Sequence record: OZ335963.1
Reading direction: 5' to 3' (one strand)
Length of the DNA stretch: 64,000 nucleotides
From: a phage
In this document: piece after piece, positions 8,724-42,567 of the stretch
Layout of the letters: every line of letters begins with the position of its first letter
Position numbering within the stretch: the first letter of the stretch is position 1
Notes under the pieces: model-generated
What the model saw: only the letters and a program-made list of their open reading frames with translations
What the model was told of the DNA's origin: nothing
Database searches by the model: none
Made by a program: the position numbers and the translations under genes

Positions 8724-9018
8724 TCAGCTGTAACGATAGCACTCGTTTGATTTACGCTTAGCAACTCGTTGAGAAGTATTGTAATCAAAATCATCGTCAA
8801 TGTAAACTGATTTTTTCAACTTTCTTACTTCACCACGTAATTGACGATTTAGCTCATCTTTAACTTCTGAATCGATGCCTTTCATTCTACGCCATTTATC
8901 AGAGCGAAAAATGTTTTCAACCATATCTTTATGACTTACACCATCAGGAGCTTTACGCTTTCCGAAATAGTCATAATCACGAACTTTCAAGTCTTTACGA
9001 CGATACGTTTTACCCATG
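8724..9018 (-). CDS. Hypothetical basic protein, about 97 aa
   Basis: Track ORF 8724-9062 begins at a GTG; the first ATG (MGKTYRRKDL...) at 9018 overlaps the stop of ORF 9010-9186 (ATGGGTAA). Confidence 0.45.
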
Positions 9019-9186
9019 GAGTTTAATTTCCTTAGCAACTGAACTAAATACAGCACGGTCACAAATCATCTGTTTATTCCATTTAAGTACAGTATAATGA
9101 ACATCTAGATCATCTACTGCTGTAACAATAACAATATGTCCGTTAACACGATAATACTGATCTCTTTTAATCTCTTTATCAACCAT
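9010..9186 (-). CDS. Hypothetical small protein, 58 aa
   Basis: Hand-translated MVDKEIKRDQYYRVNGHIVIVTAVDDLDVHYTVLKWNKQMICDRAVFSSVAKEIKLHG; fills the gap left by the track. Confidence 0.4.
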   Translation of the reverse strand: MVDKEIKRDQYYRVNGHIVIVTAVDDLDVHYTVLKWNKQMICDRAVFSSVAKEIKLHG

Positions 9187-9325
9187 ATCAAATCCTCAAA
9201 GGCAATTCATATGTTAATAATACCACAGTTTGAACTTCCTGTAACAACTTTGTGAAAATTATTTTAGGGAACGATAAGAAGGGAACGATAGCTTAGAATG
9301 GTAATATACAGAATGTGAGAAAGAA

Positions 9326-9343
9326 AGGCCCAGAGGGCCCGTC
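9326..9343 (-). terminator. Hairpin GGCCC-AGA-GGGCC downstream of nrdH
   Basis: Plus aggcccagagggcccgtc adjacent to the nrdH stop at 9344. Confidence 0.4.
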
Positions 9344-9664
9344 TTAATCTTCTATGATATCTCTATCATATCCAAGTGAAATGAGAGTTTCTTTGAAGTG
9401 TTTAATGTTCTTTTGTCTAGAATCATTAATGAAAATGACTGGATAACGAATGTTAAGAGATGTGAATCCAGCGCGTTTAGCAAGAGATACGATTAAAGGA
9501 CGGTCGTATTCAATCTTACCATTATTAGTGAGGACTTTATAAAATGTATAAGGAGCATTGAGCTCCTTTAAAAGTTTTGTAACAGTATAACATCCTGGAC
9601 AACGTCCTACTTCTTCAGGGATGCCATAAATTTCAATCTTGTTCTTTAAGTTCGAGTTTTGTTC
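9344..9664 (-). CDS. nrdH: Glutaredoxin-like protein NrdH
   Basis: Redoxin active site YGIPEEVGRCPGCY; the track ORF (9344-9796) is 5'-extended, and the true start is probably a non-ATG codon near 9664. Confidence 0.6.
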   Translation of the reverse strand, partial: EQNSNLKNKIEIYGIPEEVGRCPGCYTVTKLLKELNAPYTFYKVLTNNGKIEYDRPLIVSLAKRAGFTSLNIRYPVIFINDSRQKNIKHFKETLISLGYDRDIIED

Positions 9665-9950
9665 CACGAGAAATAATTCCTTGGTAAGCCCAATACGGTG
9701 GGTTAACAGAATCATCACCAGAATTTTCTTCAGGAAAATAAACCTGGATAACAAATCCGGATGCATCAAAGGTAAAATAAACCGTAGGTAATTCACCTAA
9801 CAATTCGGCACGATTATTAATTTCTTCGAGTTCTCTTTCACGTCCGGCCCAAAAACTAGGATTTAGACTACATTCATAGAAATAATAGTCATTACCGAAC
9901 ATATCAAAACCTTTCCAACTCTCTACCACATACCGCTCAAAACTAATCAT
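9633..9950 (-). CDS. Hypothetical protein, 105 aa
   Basis: ORF between nrdG and nrdH; acidic, aromatic-rich. Confidence 0.5.
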   Translation of the reverse strand: MISFERYVVESWKGFDMFGNDYYFYECSLNPSFWAGRERELEEINNRAELLGELPTVYFTFDASGFVIQVYFPEENSGDDSVNPPYWAYQGIISRGTKLELKEQD

Positions 9951-9952
9951 AA

Positions 9953-10168
9953 TTAAGCCTTTTTATCAAGAACAGAATTCAGTTTATTAGTAATTTTGTC
10001 CAAACGTTCATTGAATTCGCTGGAGGATAAACCCTTTTCAGGAGAAATTAAACTAATCAAGAAAAATACAACAGTAAAAGGAATAAGAAAAATAGCTCCA
10101 ACTGCCATAAACAAAAAGAATGTTACGGTTGTAAGAAAATCAGCTAAACCTTTACGAAATTTATACAT
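9953..10168 (-). CDS. Small membrane protein, 71 aa
   Basis: Hydrophobic segment TTVTFFLFMAVGAIFLIPFTVVFFLISLI. Confidence 0.5.
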   Translation of the reverse strand: MYKFRKGLADFLTTVTFFLFMAVGAIFLIPFTVVFFLISLISPEKGLSSSEFNERLDKITNKLNSVLDKKA

Positions 10169-32247: not shown

Positions 32248-32550
32248 CTATTTACCTTTAATTACTTTAGCTGCTTCGATAGCCGCTTGCTGAAGGTCGT
32301 CCATAGACATACCGAATTTAGAAGCAAAGTTATCAATTTTCTTTTCGACAGCATTCAAAGGCTTGGCCTGTTTACCTTCATTAGCGCCAGGAAGAGCGAG
32401 AATACGCTCTTTGTCAATATAAAGGCTTACAAGTTTCTTACGGTCTTTATCGGACAAATCATGAAATGAATGAGCCTTTTTATTTATAGCGGCTTCTAAT
32501 TTACTCGCAGTTACGCGGGCTTCAGTGATAAATTCTTGATAGGTTTTCAT
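32248..32550 (-). CDS. ipII: Internal protein II (head-packaged, injected)
   Basis: 100 aa; N-terminal capsid-targeting leader MKTYQEFITEA; position next to ipIII and e. Confidence 0.85.
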   Translation of the reverse strand: MKTYQEFITEARVTASKLEAAINKKAHSFHDLSDKDRKKLVSLYIDKERILALPGANEGKQAKPLNAVEKKIDNFASKFGMSMDDLQQAAIEAAKVIKGK

Positions 32551-32591: not shown

Positions 32592-33167
32592 TTAATTACC
32601 ACGGGCTGCATTAGCAACGGCATAAGCATACTGAACATTAGCGTCTTTAAACGTACCTTTAGAGGTATCTATTTCTGCCTTAAAGCCGCCTTTAGCCATA
32701 ACATCGGCGAATTCTTTACGGAAAGCCATTGCATCAAGACCTTTCCATGTTGATTTGTGCTTGGCGAATTCAAGACCAGCGTAGTTGACAGCTTTAGCCA
32801 ATTTATTATCAATGACCCATTTACCGGCTTTAGGCACAAACTTCGGACCTTTTTGTTTAGAGAACAGTTTTAAATTCCAGCGACGAAGATCACTATCGGC
32901 TTTAACAAAAGCTGCGTCTAAGTTACTAGCAACAACATCTTCAATATGAGCAAATTTAAGTCCGTCAACTTCAATATTTAGATCGTTACGCCAGCGAAGT
33001 CCTTCCCAAGCGAAAGCTTTAAAATCAGAAGCTTTTGTGGCTAGATATCGTTCAAGCGGAGCAGTTTTAGGGTCAAAGCCGTTTCCTCGGTAAGTCCACT
33101 CATCTTTATTAATGCCTTTGGCCTTTTCCGCAGAAGCTTCAGCGATAAATTCTTTATACGTTTTCAT
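32592..33167 (-). CDS. ipIII: Internal protein III
   Basis: 191 aa; leader MKTYKEFIAEA; Lys/Ala-rich basic protein. Confidence 0.85.
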   Translation of the reverse strand: MKTYKEFIAEASAEKAKGINKDEWTYRGNGFDPKTAPLERYLATKASDFKAFAWEGLRWRNDLNIEVDGLKFAHIEDVVASNLDAAFVKADSDLRRWNLKLFSKQKGPKFVPKAGKWVIDNKLAKAVNYAGLEFAKHKSTWKGLDAMAFRKEFADVMAKGGFKAEIDTSKGTFKDANVQYAYAVANAARGN

Positions 33168-36645: not shown

Positions 36646-36719
36646 AGTATTTCCTTAGGTTGATTAAGATTTAAAATCCGTAAAAGTAGTATTATACTCT
36701 ATCATCAAGTTACAGGCTC

Positions 36720-36749
36720 ATAATATCTCAATCATGAGCCTATGTAAAC
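36720..36749 (-). promoter_or_regulatory. Early-type promoter
   Basis: Minus strand GTTTACA, 17 nt, TATTAT; overlaps the inverted repeat GGCTCATGA...TATGAGCC. Confidence 0.4.
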
Positions 36750-37013
36750 TTATTTCATATTATTGAAATATTCTTCTGCAATTTCGTCGTTATCGTGGTA
36801 AACTTTAGAAGACAGTTTAACATAACCTTCAGCAGTGAACATATTAATCACAACCTTTACAGTATACCACTGTCCGTCTTCATTACCCATTACTGCGTAA
36901 GTTTCAAACATCGGATGATCAGGACCGATAACTTTAATATCATTCACTGTACGACCGAAATCTTCTGAAACGCATTTCATAAAGAAGTTGAACAGTTCGC
37001 CGTAATTATCCAT
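36750..37013 (-). CDS. Hypothetical protein, about 87 aa
   Basis: Track ORF 36750-37067 overlaps a promoter; the ATG at 37013 has a GGAGAA RBS. Confidence 0.45.
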   Translation of the reverse strand: MDNYGELFNFFMKCVSEDFGRTVNDIKVIGPDHPMFETYAVMGNEDGQWYTVKVVINMFTAEGYVKLSSKVYHDNDEIAEEYFNNMK

Positions 37014-37057
37014 TTCATTCTCCAAGTTGTTTTTCTGTATCAGTAGTTGATAGTTGT

Positions 37058-37087
37058 ATAGTACCATGGAAGAACAGGGATGTAAAC
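37058..37087 (-). promoter_or_regulatory. Early-type promoter
   Basis: Minus strand GTTTACA, 17 nt, TACTAT. Confidence 0.45.
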
Positions 37088-37218
37088 AGTTTTGTGAAAA
37101 AATTTTTAAAAAGTTTTAGGGAATTCTAGGGCAGGGAGGGGCAATTAAAGGATAGGATAATATATTATAAAGGGTAGAAACTAAATGATGCCTAGAGAGG
37201 TCCAGAAAGGTCTAGATA

Positions 37219-37245
37219 CCAAAAAGCCCTATCATTTAGATAGGG
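37219..37245 (-). terminator. Hairpin plus U-run downstream of ORF 37254-37817
   Basis: Minus strand CCCTATC-TAAAT-GATAGGG followed by CTTTTTGG. Confidence 0.45.
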
Positions 37246-37253
37246 ATTTAAAA

Positions 37254-37817
37254 TTATTTACCTAGTTTAGTTATTATAGCTTCGGCAGCAGCTTTTAGCT
37301 TAGATGCGGTGTTAATACGATTTTTAATTTCAGTATACGCATCGCCAAGAACATCAAGGCTATCAGAATAAACACTTACACTATTGCGTTCGCTATTTGA
37401 AATAGAACCTTTAGTTTTACGATCAAAATCGGTGTACACGTCTTGAAGATCACGGGCTGCCTTCTTTGCATCATCCAATGCGTCAAGAGCTTTATTTAAA
37501 GCATTAACATATTTTTTAGTGTCAAACATATTCTTAGAAATTTTAACAGGTGCACGTTCAGGAGTAGCTAATGCAGATTTAGGAACCTGAGCGCCAGATG
37601 CCAGTTTCTTAGAAATTTTGAAAAATGCTTTATTGAATTTATTTTCTTGACTCATCGTAAAAGAACTATTATCGATGTTATACATTTCAATAGCTTTAGC
37701 TTTCCACTTAAGAAAATCGCCGCGGTCTTTTGGGTCTAATTGGAAGAATACTTTAGTAAGATCTGCTTCAGATGGTAATTTTGCTGCTTCGGTTAAAAAT
37801 TCGGCATAGGTTTTCAT
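37254..37817 (-). CDS. Candidate internal (head-packaged) protein with capsid-targeting leader, 187 aa
   Basis: N-terminus MKTYAEFLTEAAK matches the ipII/ipIII leader MKTY.EF..EA; Lys/Ala-rich like ipIII. Confidence 0.55.
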   Translation of the reverse strand: MKTYAEFLTEAAKLPSEADLTKVFFQLDPKDRGDFLKWKAKAIEMYNIDNSSFTMSQENKFNKAFFKISKKLASGAQVPKSALATPERAPVKISKNMFDTKKYVNALNKALDALDDAKKAARDLQDVYTDFDRKTKGSISNSERNSVSVYSDSLDVLGDAYTEIKNRINTASKLKAAAEAIITKLGK

Positions 37818-37904
37818 TTAAAATCCTTGAAATAATTTATCGGTTGGTTATTAATTATTTATTACTTTGTTATTATCCGTAACAGCATTCTATATGTGAT
37901 TCAA

Positions 37905-37934
37905 ACTAAAAAGCCCCAACCTTTTGGTCGGGGC
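37905..37934 (-). terminator. Rho-independent terminator (copy 1 of a repeated hairpin)
   Basis: Minus strand GCCCCGACC-AAAA-GGTTGGGGC followed by TTTTTAG; near-identical to 38465-38493. Confidence 0.6.
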
Positions 37935-37942
37935 TAAGAATG

Positions 37943-38416
37943 TTATTTGATTTGTTTAGCAGACCAAATGCGGTCTTTAATAATTTTTTGGATGTCTTCA
38001 ACATACTCAAGAGAGTGAACATGTGGATTATCTTTGAAACTATAAGCACGGGCTAACTTTTGGCCTTCGGTTTTGATTACTAAAAGCTCTTTAAGGATAG
38101 CTTCATATTTAGCAATAATTCCTTTAACGATATTTTTTTCTTGTGCCGCTTTAGGATCTGCTTTAGGAGCAGGTTTACCCGAAGCCTTTGCAAAAGCAGC
38201 GCCAGTAGCAACTAGACTTTTCCAGGCCATACTAACTGCATTTCCCGTAAATCCTTCTGCTTTCATGTCGCGAGCAAATTGGAATCGTGATTCGTCAGAA
38301 GCATCTTTATAGGAATATTTACCCGCTGCAATGGCTGCTTTTGCGACAGCTTGAATTTCGGTGCTAGATGCTTCATTTAACACCGCTTCATTTAAAAATT
38401 GAGCATATGATTTCAT
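37943..38416 (-). CDS. Candidate internal (head-packaged) protein with capsid-targeting leader, 157 aa
   Basis: N-terminus MKSYAQFLNEAVL; flanked by repeated terminators; preceded by a TATAAATA late-promoter motif. Confidence 0.55.
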   Translation of the reverse strand: MKSYAQFLNEAVLNEASSTEIQAVAKAAIAAGKYSYKDASDESRFQFARDMKAEGFTGNAVSMAWKSLVATGAAFAKASGKPAPKADPKAAQEKNIVKGIIAKYEAILKELLVIKTEGQKLARAYSFKDNPHVHSLEYVEDIQKIIKDRIWSAKQIK

Positions 38417-38456
38417 CTTATTTCCTGTTTTAATTCGTGGATTTAATATACTACTG

Positions 38457-38464
38457 TATTTATA
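38457..38464 (-). promoter_or_regulatory. Late promoter motif TATAAATA upstream of ORF 37943-38416
   Basis: Plus tatttata equals minus TATAAATA, about 40 nt upstream of the ATG. Confidence 0.45.
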
Positions 38465-38493
38465 CTAAAAAGCCCCAACCTTTCGGTCGGGGC
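38465..38493 (-). terminator. Rho-independent terminator ending the tRNA/stable-RNA operon (copy 2)
   Basis: Minus strand GCCCCGACC-GAAA-GGTTGGGGC followed by TTTTTAG. Confidence 0.6.
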
Positions 38494-38497
38494 TAAG

Positions 38498-38810
38498 CCT
38501 TGCGGCAACCTTGTCGGGGTTCCACCTGCTAAGGCAAGTGTTTGTACGAAACGCCGGGATTTGAACCCGGTTATTAAGTAGTTGACGCTACTCAATATTT
38601 TTAAAAGGCCATATCTCGACCATATCCGAACGTTCCGTCAAAAACGCTACTCGGCTTACGGCAAAGATATTTCCTCGAATCGATAATTCTGTGCGCCGTT
38701 TCAGCTGTGATGTAAGGGGGCATTAACAGATCGTAAAGATTTGTTAATGCCAGTCCTTACCCAGGGAACATCAGTCCGACGACTTACCGGTAGCGACCCG
38801 GTTTCTTGTT
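38498..38810 (-). ncRNA. Candidate stable RNA region downstream of tRNA-Arg (T4 species 1/2 RNA-like)
   Basis: No ORF; several strong hairpins (GGCATTAACA...TGTTAATGCC) and a tRNA-like T-arm CCGGGTTCAAATCCCGG; exact ends not determined. Confidence 0.3.
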
Positions 38811-38886
38811 TGGTCGAGGCAGTAGGGATCGAACCTACGACCTAGGACTTAGAAGGTCCTTGCTCTTCCTTCTGAGCTATGCCTCG
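38811..38886 (-). tRNA. tRNA-Arg (anticodon UCU)
   Basis: Hand-folded cloverleaf; anticodon loop CTTCTAA; T-loop GGTTCGATC; CCA encoded. Confidence 0.85.
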
Positions 38887-38890
38887 TATT

Positions 38891-38965
38891 TGGCGGACAT
38901 GCATGGATTCGAACCATGGACCAATTGATTAACAGTCAACTGCTCTACCACTGAGCTACACATCC
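38891..38965 (-). tRNA. tRNA-Asn (anticodon GUU)
   Basis: Hand-folded cloverleaf GGATGTG...; anticodon loop CTGTTAA; T-loop GGTTCGAATCC; CCA encoded. Confidence 0.7.
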
Positions 38966-38969
38966 AAAT

Positions 38970-39056
38970 TGGTGGGGAGTGATGGAGTCGAACCACCCGA
39001 GTCGCAATGACAATGGATTTACAGTCCACACCGCTACCTCTACGGGATAACTCCCC
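38970..39056 (-). tRNA. tRNA-Tyr (anticodon GUA), long variable arm
   Basis: Anticodon loop CTGTAAA; long variable arm as in bacterial tRNA-Tyr; CCA encoded; D-arm is atypical. Confidence 0.55.
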
Positions 39057-39069
39057 TTAATTCTTAATT

Positions 39070-39144
39070 TGGTGGCCCTGGGTGGAATTGAACCACCATC
39101 TGGCGATTATGAGTCGCTTGCTTGAACCTTCCAGCTACAGGGCC
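39070..39144 (-). tRNA. tRNA-Ile (anticodon CAU; Met/Ile not distinguishable from sequence)
   Basis: Anticodon loop CTCATAA; Ile assigned by analogy with T4 tRNA-Ile. Confidence 0.75.
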
Positions 39145-39145
39145 T

Positions 39146-39221
39146 TGGTGCTGATTGACGGAATCGAACCGCCGACATCCTCATTACAAGTGAGGTGCTC
39201 TACCTACTGAGCTAAATCAGC
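39146..39221 (-). tRNA. tRNA-Thr (anticodon UGU)
   Basis: Cloverleaf GCTGATT...; anticodon loop CTTGTAA; CCA encoded. Confidence 0.85.
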
Positions 39222-39226
39222 AAAAC

Positions 39227-39316
39227 TGGCGGAGGCGATAGGATTTGAACCTATGAGTCGCCGGAGCGACTGCCGGTTTTCAAGACCGGTGCATTAAACC
39301 ACTCTGCCACGCCTCC
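39227..39316 (-). tRNA. tRNA-Ser (anticodon UGA), long variable arm
   Basis: Cloverleaf GGAGGCG...; anticodon loop CTTGAAA; CCA encoded. Confidence 0.85.
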
Positions 39317-39318
39317 AG

Positions 39319-39392
39319 TCTCCGCGGCAGGATTTGAACCTGCGACATTCTGCTCCCAAAGCAGACGCTCTACCAAACTGAGCTACACGGAG
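39319..39392 (-). tRNA. tRNA-Pro (anticodon UGG), CCA not encoded
   Basis: Cloverleaf CTCCGTG...; anticodon loop TTTGGGA; abuts tRNA-Ser as in the T4 Pro-Ser dimeric precursor. Confidence 0.85.
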
Positions 39393-39402
39393 TAAATTAA
39401 AT

Positions 39403-39476
<74 letters not shown>

Positions 39477-39481
39477 AAATT

Positions 39482-39568
39482 TGGTGCGAGAAGTGGGACT
39501 CGAACCCACAAGGAAATCATTCCGCAGCATTTTAAGTGCTGTGCCTTTACCAATTTGACCATTCTCGC
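39482..39568 (-). tRNA. tRNA-Leu (anticodon UAA), long variable arm
   Basis: Cloverleaf GCGAGAA...; anticodon loop CTTAAAA. Confidence 0.85.
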
Positions 39569-39569
39569 G

Positions 39570-39642
39570 CTGGGAATAAAGGACTCGAACCTTTGCATCT
39601 AGCAGTCAAAGTGCTATGCCTTACCAACTTGGCTAATTCCCA
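39570..39642 (-). tRNA. tRNA-Gln (anticodon UUG), CCA not encoded
   Basis: Cloverleaf TGGGAAT...; anticodon loop CTTTGAC; first tRNA of the cluster. Confidence 0.85.
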
Positions 39643-41180: not shown

Positions 41181-41468
41181 TTACAAAAGATTTTTAGCAA
41201 TAATCTTGAGATGTGCCGCAGAAATGTGTTTAGCTTTAAACAACGCAGTTTCTTCAGCAGGAGAGATAATGATTGTAGCACCATCCTTTTTAGCAGACCA
41301 CCCATCACCTAGGTAAACAGTACCTTTGATTTCTTCGCCATCAACCAGACTAATCATTGGTTTACCTTCTCGTCCTTTATTTGCTTTAATAACTTCAGAA
41401 GTAAGAGTAGCTTCGGTAATAGTAGAAACTGGGGTAGTTGTAGAAGTAAATTCTTTAAATGTTTTCAT
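41181..41468 (-). CDS. ipI: Internal protein I (injected anti-restriction protein)
   Basis: 95 aa; leader MKTFKEFTSTTTPVSTITE (19 aa); matches the T4 IPI precursor length. Confidence 0.8.
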   Translation of the reverse strand: MKTFKEFTSTTTPVSTITEATLTSEVIKANKGREGKPMISLVDGEEIKGTVYLGDGWSAKKDGATIIISPAEETALFKAKHISAAHLKIIAKNLL

Positions 41469-41489
41469 TTTATTTTCCTAATTAATTTT

Positions 41490-41528
41490 GATGAGATAAT
41501 GGTATCACAACTAAAACCCTGTGTAAAC
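41490..41528 (-). promoter_or_regulatory. Early promoter upstream of ipI
   Basis: Minus strand GTTTACA, spacer, TACCAT; region near-identical to 41829-41858. Confidence 0.4.
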
Positions 41529-41540
41529 AGCTTTGTGAAA

Positions 41541-41798
41541 TTATTTTAAATCTTCTAATCGTTTCTTCATCTTAGAACCGTTCTTAGCGATTTCGCCTGC
41601 ATCAGAGCATAATGCTAAAAGAGCTTTAACTTTAGTTTGGTCTCCTTTAAAAGATGAAGGATCGACTGCAGCAGCAAGTTCTTTAATACGAGAGAAAAGA
41701 CGCTCAGCTTCAGCTAAAGCCATTCCAAGCTTTACTTCCATACCGTGGGAAGATTCAGTAATAGTAGTTTTTGTAGCAAACTCTTTGAAAGTTTTCAT
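41541..41798 (-). CDS. Candidate additional internal protein with capsid-targeting leader, 85 aa
   Basis: N-terminus MKTFKEFATKTTITE parallels the ipI leader; own duplicated promoter and RBS region. Confidence 0.55.
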   Translation of the reverse strand: MKTFKEFATKTTITESSHGMEVKLGMALAEAERLFSRIKELAAAVDPSSFKGDQTKVKALLALCSDAGEIAKNGSKMKKRLEDLK

Positions 41799-41828
41799 TT
41801 TATTTTCCTAATTAATTTTGATGAGATA

Positions 41829-41858
41829 ATAGTATCACTACCTCATCAGCATGTAAAC
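41829..41858 (-). promoter_or_regulatory. Early promoter upstream of the 85-aa IP-like gene
   Basis: Minus strand GTTTACA, spacer, TACTAT. Confidence 0.4.
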
Positions 41859-41870
41859 AACTTTGTGAAA

Positions 41871-42567
<697 letters not shown>

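Follow-up and report, generated by a model that had tools for sequence, protein, structure and literature searches.

Two uncharacterised genes of a T4-like phage, open reading frames ORF187 and ORF157 (187 and 157 aa), probably encode additional unnamed members of the T4-type internal protein (Ip) class, i.e. proteins that would be packaged in the phage head, injected into the host and most likely be directed against a nuclease. Both are found in sequence record OZ335963.1, of which a stretch of 64,000 nucleotides (the window) was analysed. The window represents a Tequatrovirus genome, and the 1.5 kb around both genes are 99.1% identical to Shigella phage sb3 and 96–98% identical to many ime09-like phages. 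Our overall judgement blends two estimates of different strength: we have good confidence that both are Ip-type packaged proteins, and by analogy we tentatively propose an enzyme of the GmrSD type as their target. The class, the logic of its leader and the shuffling of cassettes are already established; new here are two unnamed Ip members and the third locus proposed below. In the following two lines a slash marks the predicted cleavage sites.

37254..37817, minus strand: ORF187, candidate internal protein, leader MKTYAEFLTE/A in codons 37788-37817.
37943..38416, minus strand: ORF157, candidate internal protein, leader MKSYAQFLNE/AVLNE/A in codons 38372-38416, with two L-N-E sites.

The original prediction, made from the letters of the window alone, had pointed to a leader common to both genes, ipII and ipIII. 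Gene prediction returned 37254-37817 and 37943-38416 with the expected starts MKTYAEFLTEA and MKSYAQFLNEA, and the similarity is evident: residues 1–10 read MKTYAEFLTE in ORF187 and MKSYAQFLNE in ORF157 as compared with MKTYQEFITE (ipII) and MKTYKEFIAE (ipIII) of the same window. Of the 138 ATG-initiated reading frames with 60 aa or more in the window, 6 start with MK[ST][YF]x[EQ]F, whereas 6e-4 are expected from composition. Besides ORF187 and ORF157 the leader-bearing reading frames are the following.

32248-32550: ipII.
32592-33167: ipIII.
41181-41468: ipI.
41541-41798: Ip5.

The prohead protease gp21 cleaves at the motif (L/I)-x-E. This motif is present in ORF187 as LTE/A at residues 8–11 and in ORF157 as LNE/A at residues 8–11 and 13–16; known internal proteins show IAE/A (ipIII), ITE/A (ipII) and ITE/A at residues 17–20 (ipI). 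Residues 6–15 of ORF157 (38372-38401) form a tandem repeat FLNEA-VLNEA with two potential protease sites, and the homologues from Mosigvirus and Klebsiella phages have one. The 10-residue capsid-targeting sequence (CTS) MKTYQEFIAE alone is enough to load foreign proteins into T4 heads (PMC8442874). It is removed by one prohead-protease cleavage (PMC8442874; PMC9958956), and Ip leaders undergo cleavage (PMC9958956). ORF187 matches this CTS at 7 of 10 positions and ORF157 at 5 of 10; the differences at positions 2–4 and 8 are conservative, and positions 5 and 9 vary between ipII and ipIII too.

The leader heads all 10 inspected sequences of the ORF157 family in the form M..F.(E/D)FL.E, including those where BLASTP aligns the N-terminal half only (53–58% identity there). 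Since it is kept in ORF157 relatives while the remainder diverges or is swapped, the leader is regarded as functional, and its retention together with (L/I)-x-E in the most divergent relatives appears to reflect purifying selection and not a relic.

Both predicted mature proteins are small and basic, which is compatible with co-packaging with DNA. Mature ORF187 (19.6 kDa, isoelectric point (pI) 9.54, net charge +9) would start from A11 with AAKLPSEADLTK, and mature ORF157 (about 16 kDa, pI 9.50–9.59, net charge +7 or +8) with AVLNEASSTEIQAVAK from A11 or with ASSTEIQAVAK from A16. With 13–18% Ala and 14–15% Lys both are close to ipII (pI 9.66, net charge +6) and ipIII (pI 9.58, +9); the net charge of ORF187 equals that of ipIII and its pI is nearly the same. 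The structural model of ORF157, based on an alignment of 12 sequences, is all-helical (pLDDT 71.5 overall) with a helical N-domain at residues ~17–78 (pLDDT 82–91), a disordered Pro/Lys/Ala linker at ~79–93 and a C-terminal helical hairpin. The model of ORF187, obtained from a single sequence and of low confidence (pLDDT 62), is all-helical as well and shows a similar layout with a disordered linker at ~77–98, which is flanked by a repeat in the DNA.

37531..37628, minus strand: direct repeat within ORF187, with copies at 37531-37553 and 37606-37628 (75 nt apart).

In Shigella phage CT01 the ORF187 protein has 162 aa and lacks the 25 codons exactly between these direct repeats, with KISK...KISK collapsed; the disordered region 77–98 largely overlaps the deleted stretch.

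The two genes differ in their distribution. ORF157 is found in 512 records of the phage collection, and its relatives in Mosigvirus show ~73% identity, the copy of phage APCEc01 being likewise located after the rnaC terminator. Klebsiella and Yersinia T4-like phages carry relatives with a conserved N-terminal domain and a different C-terminal half. A fold search with Foldseek against BFVD returned, besides the ORF157 family itself, only one protein, from Serratia phage PS2. A deep profile search collected 11 proteins for this family among 1.84 billion representatives, and none of these 11 matches is a non-phage relative. The number of phage records with ORF187 is 165, with an identity of 85% or more throughout, and 11 clusters were retrieved for it among 5.8 billion proteins, all of them close relatives or fragments; it is essentially an ORFan of Tequatrovirus and RB69.

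Expression signals were compared upstream of both genes. The late-promoter motif claimed in the original prediction for ORF157 was found on the minus strand (38464..38457), and a related element precedes ORF187.

38457..38464, minus strand: core of a T4 late promoter, TATAAATA, belonging to the ORF157 cassette and abutting the T-run of the upstream terminator, 40 nt before the ORF157 ATG.
37856..37863, minus strand: AATAAATA, possible degenerate late promoter of ORF187, putative in function, 38 nt upstream of the ATG.

The ORF157 promoter is conserved as GGGCTTTTT(A/G)GTATAAATA in phages phiD1, SA21RB, F26 and ESh32, its motif also precedes the homologue in Klebsiella phage KpV477, and the record of SA21RB annotates it as late promoter. 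An AGGA Shine-Dalgarno site is found at the start of ORF157. Upstream of ORF187 the ATAAATA core is conserved in SA21RB, F26, RB69, CT01 and RB14, with A or G as first base. A sigma-70 scan gave a weak site at 37900..37872, and matches to sigma-70 or MotA-type promoters for ORF187 are weak only.

Virion data exist for a homologue of ORF157. In phage phiD1 (fD1) the product g140, 97% identical to ORF157, is listed as PPAP (particle-associated) from LC-MS/MS of purified virions. The same table gives no detection for its neighbours g138 and e.8 (g139), nor for the membrane proteins g133-135. The dataset is unspecific: 113 products pass the strict threshold, 137 of 277 (49%) were identified in all, and the particle-associated list includes DenV, lysozyme e and NudE. 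The detection of g140 thus shows expression and co-purification with virions, not specific encapsidation.

From these features a route for both proteins can be proposed. The ~10-residue N-terminal CTS would incorporate each of them into the scaffolding core of the prohead and gp21 would remove the leader after Glu10, in ORF157 possibly also after Glu15. The basic mature protein (~19.6 kDa for ORF187, ~16 kDa for ORF157) would stay in the head with the DNA and be injected into the next host. There it would most likely neutralise a first-line nuclease defence, at best guess one subtype among the GmrSD type IV restriction enzymes; this last step relies on the analogy with Ip1–3 and is the weakest one.

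In agreement with the original prediction both genes are annotated as hypothetical protein in every sampled record and neither is a homologue of a characterised T4 protein. Compared with Ip1, Ip2, Ip3, Ip4 (DUF7412), Ip5 and Ip6 no homology was detectable beyond the leader. Searches of Pfam and NCBIfam gave no family match for either protein, sequence searches of the PDB no match, and Foldseek against the PDB nothing with E<1 for either model. Both reading frames match phrog_2280 over their full length with E of 1e-53 or better. No Ip name occurs among the sampled members of their clusters, in contrast to the cluster of Ip5, where this name appears; in the annotation of RB14 the genes Ip4, ipI and Ip5 are labelled and ORF136 (= ORF187) is left hypothetical. 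None of the papers searched by accessions and leader strings mentions either gene.

Several closer relationships were considered and rejected. An identity of ORF157 with Ip4, suggested by the common length of 157 aa (phages PST and RB14 annotate a 474-nt Ip4), was discarded as similarity is at chance level only. Ip4 corresponds to Pfam DUF7412, which is matched by neither ORF157 nor ORF187. PST IpIV (Yersinia phage PST 427-900) matches this family (PF24183) in full length with E=6e-96, and the leaders of ipI and ipII give weak matches to the N-terminal part of the DUF7412 model. A paralogy of ORF187 and ORF157, suggested by the full-length scores of both against phrog_2280, found no support either: BLASTP and hhalign, the latter with or without leader, find the 11-residue leader only. 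A match of ORF187 to the Klebsiella-type relative P0066 was insignificant. Apart from leader and gross architecture the two proteins are therefore treated here as apparently unrelated.

The wider Ip1–Ip13 set of T-even phages is reported by Repoila et al. 1994, Mullaney and Black 1996 and Silas et al. 2025. With IPII, IPIII and this set ORF187 and ORF157 share the near-identical 10-residue leader ending in (L/I)-x-E before an alanine. They are likewise small, basic and Ala/Lys-rich, non-essential and patchy in occurrence, each gene has its own regulatory signals and the members are alike in the leader only. In contrast, they are located between e.8 and the rnaC terminator, a position distinct from the ipI locus (57B-tRNA.4) as well as from the ipII/ipIII locus.

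Among Ip1, Ip2 and Ip3 the leader is the sole common feature, and the GmrSD type IV restriction enzyme that is blocked differs from one to the next (PMC12373910). On ECOR17 the phage requires IPIII, which is active from the cytoplasm even when its CTS is missing (PMC9391042). With IPI*, Ip2 and Ip3 the candidates would share the mode of delivery, being predicted to be pre-made, injected with the DNA and acting before phage gene expression, and they occur in the same phage group with the glucosylated hydroxymethylcytosine DNA that is targeted by GmrSD enzymes. They differ in being larger and two-domain with a flexible linker, and show no structural likeness to IPI* or any PDB entry.

A number of points weigh against the assignment to the Ip class and to a nuclease target. 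As the phiD1 list comprises half of all products including non-structural enzymes, the detection of g140 is weak evidence for specific packaging. For ORF187 no virion data were found, the papers on Sfk20 and fPS-2/65/90 containing no virion proteomics. Upstream of ORF187 (A/G)ATAAATA is found at a spacing equivalent to that of ORF157 but there is no consensus late promoter, so that an expression timing suited to prohead assembly is putative for this gene. N-terminal processing and injection of both proteins are predictions from the leader. Neither in fold nor in sequence did Pfam, PDB sequence and Foldseek searches reveal a likeness to IPI* (PF11634) or a known anti-defence protein; as Ip1–3 are mutually unrelated, the missing similarity to IPI* is no argument against a function as GmrSD inhibitor. 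Five further GmrSD clusters restrict T-even phages, with no reproducible inhibitor among the ip genes tested, Ip1–3 and ip4-10 (PMC12373910). Since no reproducible GmrSD target emerged for the ip4-10 genes tested (PMC12373910), the analogy with Ip1–3 need not generalise.

Part of this evidence would also fit with the leader being a non-functional relic from recombining 5' ends of ip genes, in which case the proteins would be cytoplasmic accessory factors that are neither packaged nor injected. The leader regions of both reading frames are indeed alike in DNA (76% over 42 nt), ORF187 is without consensus late promoter and the sole virion detection comes from an unspecific dataset. This explanation is nevertheless quite improbable, because even those relatives of ORF157 that diverge most keep leader and (L/I)-x-E, the late promoter upstream of ORF157 is perfect, and a 10-residue CTS suffices for unrelated proteins (PMC8442874; PMC9958956), so that any late-expressed carrier should be packaged.

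Alternatively, both proteins could be packaged via the leader but act as generic basic filler in assembly of the scaffold core or in neutralisation and condensation of the DNA charge, without a specific host target. The mature forms are basic, Ala/Lys-rich and largely helical with disordered linkers like DNA-associated internal proteins, the DNA of T4 holds some 1000 IP molecules embedded in it (PMC3012670), and the fold searches matched neither an enzyme nor an inhibitor. However, a role as filler was once assumed for all three T4 Ips, which proved to be specific GmrSD inhibitors (PMC12373910). Moreover, the patchy presence among near-identical phages fits host-specific accessory roles better than a structural one, and the good conservation of the ORF157 N-domain across genera suggests a specific interaction. 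We consider a mere filler function unlikely.

The genomic arrangement bears on the assignment to the Ip class too. By alignment, 36711-37245 of the window (e.8 and its upstream spacer) corresponds to T4 70321-70854 with 94% identity, and 38462-38856 (terminator, rnaC, rnaD, tRNA-Arg) to T4 70825-71217 with 90%. ORF187 and ORF157 are both absent from T4, where the terminator is single-copy (70827-70859) and follows the tRNA/rnaD/rnaC operon. As the two flanking blocks meet in T4 at this one terminator, both reading frames represent an insertion of ~1.2 kb relative to T4. The insertion point lies exactly between the stem and T-run of the tRNA-operon terminator and GGTATCTA, the next sequence in T4. 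The elements that delimit the insertion are as follows.

38471..38494, minus strand: resident intrinsic terminator of the tRNA/rnaD/rnaC operon, upstream copy of the duplicate (-20.3 kcal/mol) and cassette attachment point.
37912..37935, minus strand: terminator of the ORF157 cassette itself, downstream copy of the duplicate (-19.5 kcal/mol).
37227..37245, minus strand: terminator of the ORF187 cassette itself, a different stem with the same GGGCTTTTT end (-10.7 kcal/mol, z -2.8).
36750..37013, minus strand: e.8 homologue, which forms the conserved far-side flank of the insertion; its match to phrog_2678 starts at residue 19, and a longer e.8 reading frame reaching 37067 is probably an over-call.
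About 38545-38684 and 38691-38809, minus strand: rnaC and rnaD homologues by alignment to T4, conserved flank on the near side; neither was detected by Rfam search.

The original prediction had described ORF157 as boxed by a duplicated terminator and both genes as carried in a discrete cassette. The duplication itself is clear, 37899-37938 and 38458-38497 being 93% identical over 40 nt. Both stems consist of 10 bp (7 G-C) followed by a U-run, and they fold with -19.5 (z -4.6) and -20.3 kcal/mol (z -4.3), values that no shuffled sequence reaches. The cassette idea is supported by the polymorphism in relatives; yet ORF187 and ORF157 turned out to form one cassette each, and what boxes ORF157 on its upstream side is the pre-existing rnaC terminator, whose sequence follows rnaC also in T4, PST, phiD1, CT01 and SA21RB.

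For comparison every terminator ending in GGGCTTTTT was extracted from ten loci of phages of three genera, those of RB14 and RB69 coming from separate comparisons. Each reading frame forms a unit of its own that comprises a 5' region with a Shine-Dalgarno site, the gene and an intrinsic terminator, with breakpoints at terminator ends. In ORF187 the cassette-specific 5' region is 37818-37911 and begins with AGTTTGAATCAC. Four states of the site occur in GenBank.

Empty (T4, PST): rnaC-stemA-GGGGCTTTTT / GGTATCTA-e.8.
ORF157 only (phiD1): stemA-T-run / GTATAAATA...ORF157...stemA'-T-run / GGTATCTAGG.
ORF187 only (CT01, RB14, RB69): stemA-T-run / AGTTTGAATCAC...ORF187...stemB-T-run / GGTATCTAGG.
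Both (window, SA21RB, ESh32, F26): two units in series.

All junctions are located at the GGGCTTTTT end of a terminator. In phages with ORF157 only (phiD1) the ORF157 terminator is followed directly by the T4-type tail GGTATCTAGG. The ORF187 terminator is followed by the T4-type tail GGTATCTAG. Phage ime09 also has both genes, and T2 and T6 match the query for the empty-site junction with 98.6–100%. ORF187 and ORF157 occur together in 128 records, and the junction of the rnaC terminator to ORF187 is found in 37, which equals 165 minus 128. From this junction census with 74-nt queries only the latter count was used: the queries for the empty and the ORF157-only state share 61 of 74 nt, and their counts at 80% coverage (293 and 284) are therefore inseparable.

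Exchange of these units apparently crosses genus borders. In the Mosigvirus RB69 (NC_004928) the e.8-ORF187 block (8889-10112, compared with window 36715-37938) is 94.5% identical and the adjacent e.6 79%, which indicates a recent inter-genus exchange. ORF187 of RB69 is frameshifted and split into ORF148c/149c, and ORF157 of F26 is frameshifted as well. In the same Escherichia phage vB_Eco_F26 a local duplication of 350 bp (516-1106) fuses the first e.8 codons to the last ORF187 codons and repeats the ORF187 terminator and the upstream spacer of e.8; its origin is either recombination or an error of the assembly. Such pseudogenised or rearranged copies look as would be expected for dispensable genes, and with four states and frameshifted copies ORF187 and ORF157 are, like other genes of the Ip class, non-essential genes in a hyperplastic cassette-like locus.

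Frameshifted copies, together with the lack of a Pfam or NCBIfam family match, might suggest that the reading frames are no real genes and that the 1.2-kb insert is non-coding filler or the remnant of a degenerate mobile element. Against this speak intact frames and Shine-Dalgarno sites in hundreds of genomes, conservation at the protein level across genera, peptides of the ORF157 homologue in mass spectrometry and the matches of both proteins to phrog_2280 (E of 1e-53 or better). Mass-spectrometric detection and cross-genus protein conservation effectively refute this explanation, and its probability is close to nil.

As for the origin of the four states, recombination within the stem/GGGCTTTTT terminator ends that the units share may account for their gain, loss and combination. 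The genes would thus have moved by terminator-mediated shuffling, by the same logic as in the PeSL (promoter-early stem-loop) cassettes reported from T4-like phages (Arbiol et al. 2010; Comeau et al. 2014; PMC2839356, PMC4122927). Common to both are an ORFan bounded by repeated composite terminator/promoter elements, a transcriptionally insulated cassette, and presence/absence polymorphism among close relatives with junctions inside the repeat (93% over 40 nt in the ORF157 box). In contrast with PeSL an intrinsic terminator is fused here to a late promoter, TATAAATA, and not to an early promoter of the sigma-70 type, for which only weak matches are present. The junction homology is also short: the ORF157 box has about 33–40 nt of it, and in ORF187 it comes down to GGGCTTTTT. 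Intermediates in the form of mini-circles would be hypothetical for the present cassettes. Similar repeats are observed at the classical ipI locus, where the upstream regions of ipI and Ip5 (41469-41560 and 41799-41890) are nearly identical over ~75 nt with early-promoter motifs GTTTACA...GTGATAC(C/T)ATT and the same Shine-Dalgarno region; these are PeSL-like repeats that could give rise to similar shuffling.

Silas et al. 2025 (PMC12373910) cite the published Ip loci as two, the ipI locus and the ipII/ipIII locus. For the site between e.8 and the rnaC terminator no description was found in the literature searched. It is conceivable, though rather doubtful as a whole, that this site is a third Ip locus whose occupants are injected inhibitors of defences without known phage antagonist. 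Candidate targets would then be, by analogy, those GmrSD clusters that restrict T-even phages and are not blocked by Ip1–10, or a first-line nuclease other than GmrSD. With such a role ORF157 would be a modular inhibitor. Its N-domain, which T4-like phages of Escherichia, Klebsiella, Yersinia and Serratia have in common, is connected through a flexible linker with the C-terminal helical hairpin, and this hairpin, which differs between phage groups, might tune specificity.

All genes of the region are encoded on the minus strand in the order ipII, ipIII, e, nudE, e.2-e.6, e.8, ORF187, ORF157, rnaC/rnaD, ten tRNAs, homologues of tRNA.2-4, ipI, Ip5, 57B, 57A and gene 1. The T4 gene e.7 is missing from the window, 36662 being joined to 36711 where T4 has 69922-70321. 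In relatives its position is taken by other small reading frames, ORF130/RB14ORF134 (58 aa) or a reading frame of 176 aa (CT01), and it is another indel hotspot adjoining the cassette site. Between e.8 and the ORF187 terminator a non-coding stretch of ~145 nt (37068-37212) is 94% conserved with T4 (70624-70826) and also kept in RB69; an early-promoter-like site for e.8 is found there (37086..37058). The tRNA cluster (38811-39642) contains ten tRNAs (Arg, Asn, Tyr, Met, Thr, Ser, Pro, Gly, Leu, Gln) without the homing-endonuclease gene segB, and its T4 counterpart consists of eight tRNAs and segB.

To our knowledge, internal proteins are the only counter-defence factors of T4 that are delivered before any phage gene expression. 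Between 2022 and 2025 each of the three T4 Ips was found to inhibit specifically a different GmrSD type IV restriction enzyme, and several active GmrSD clusters as well as ip4-10 are still unmatched. ORF157 and ORF187 are contained in ~500 and ~165 sequenced phages, respectively, and are annotated as hypothetical; their recognition as Ip candidates would add two effectors to this arms race and a third locus to those of the internal proteins. The locus itself offers a clean natural example of cassette exchange at a terminator/late-promoter element, including exchange across genera as in RB69. Such genes may be of relevance for host-range prediction of therapeutic T4-like phages, and their CTS leaders for the packaging of cargo.

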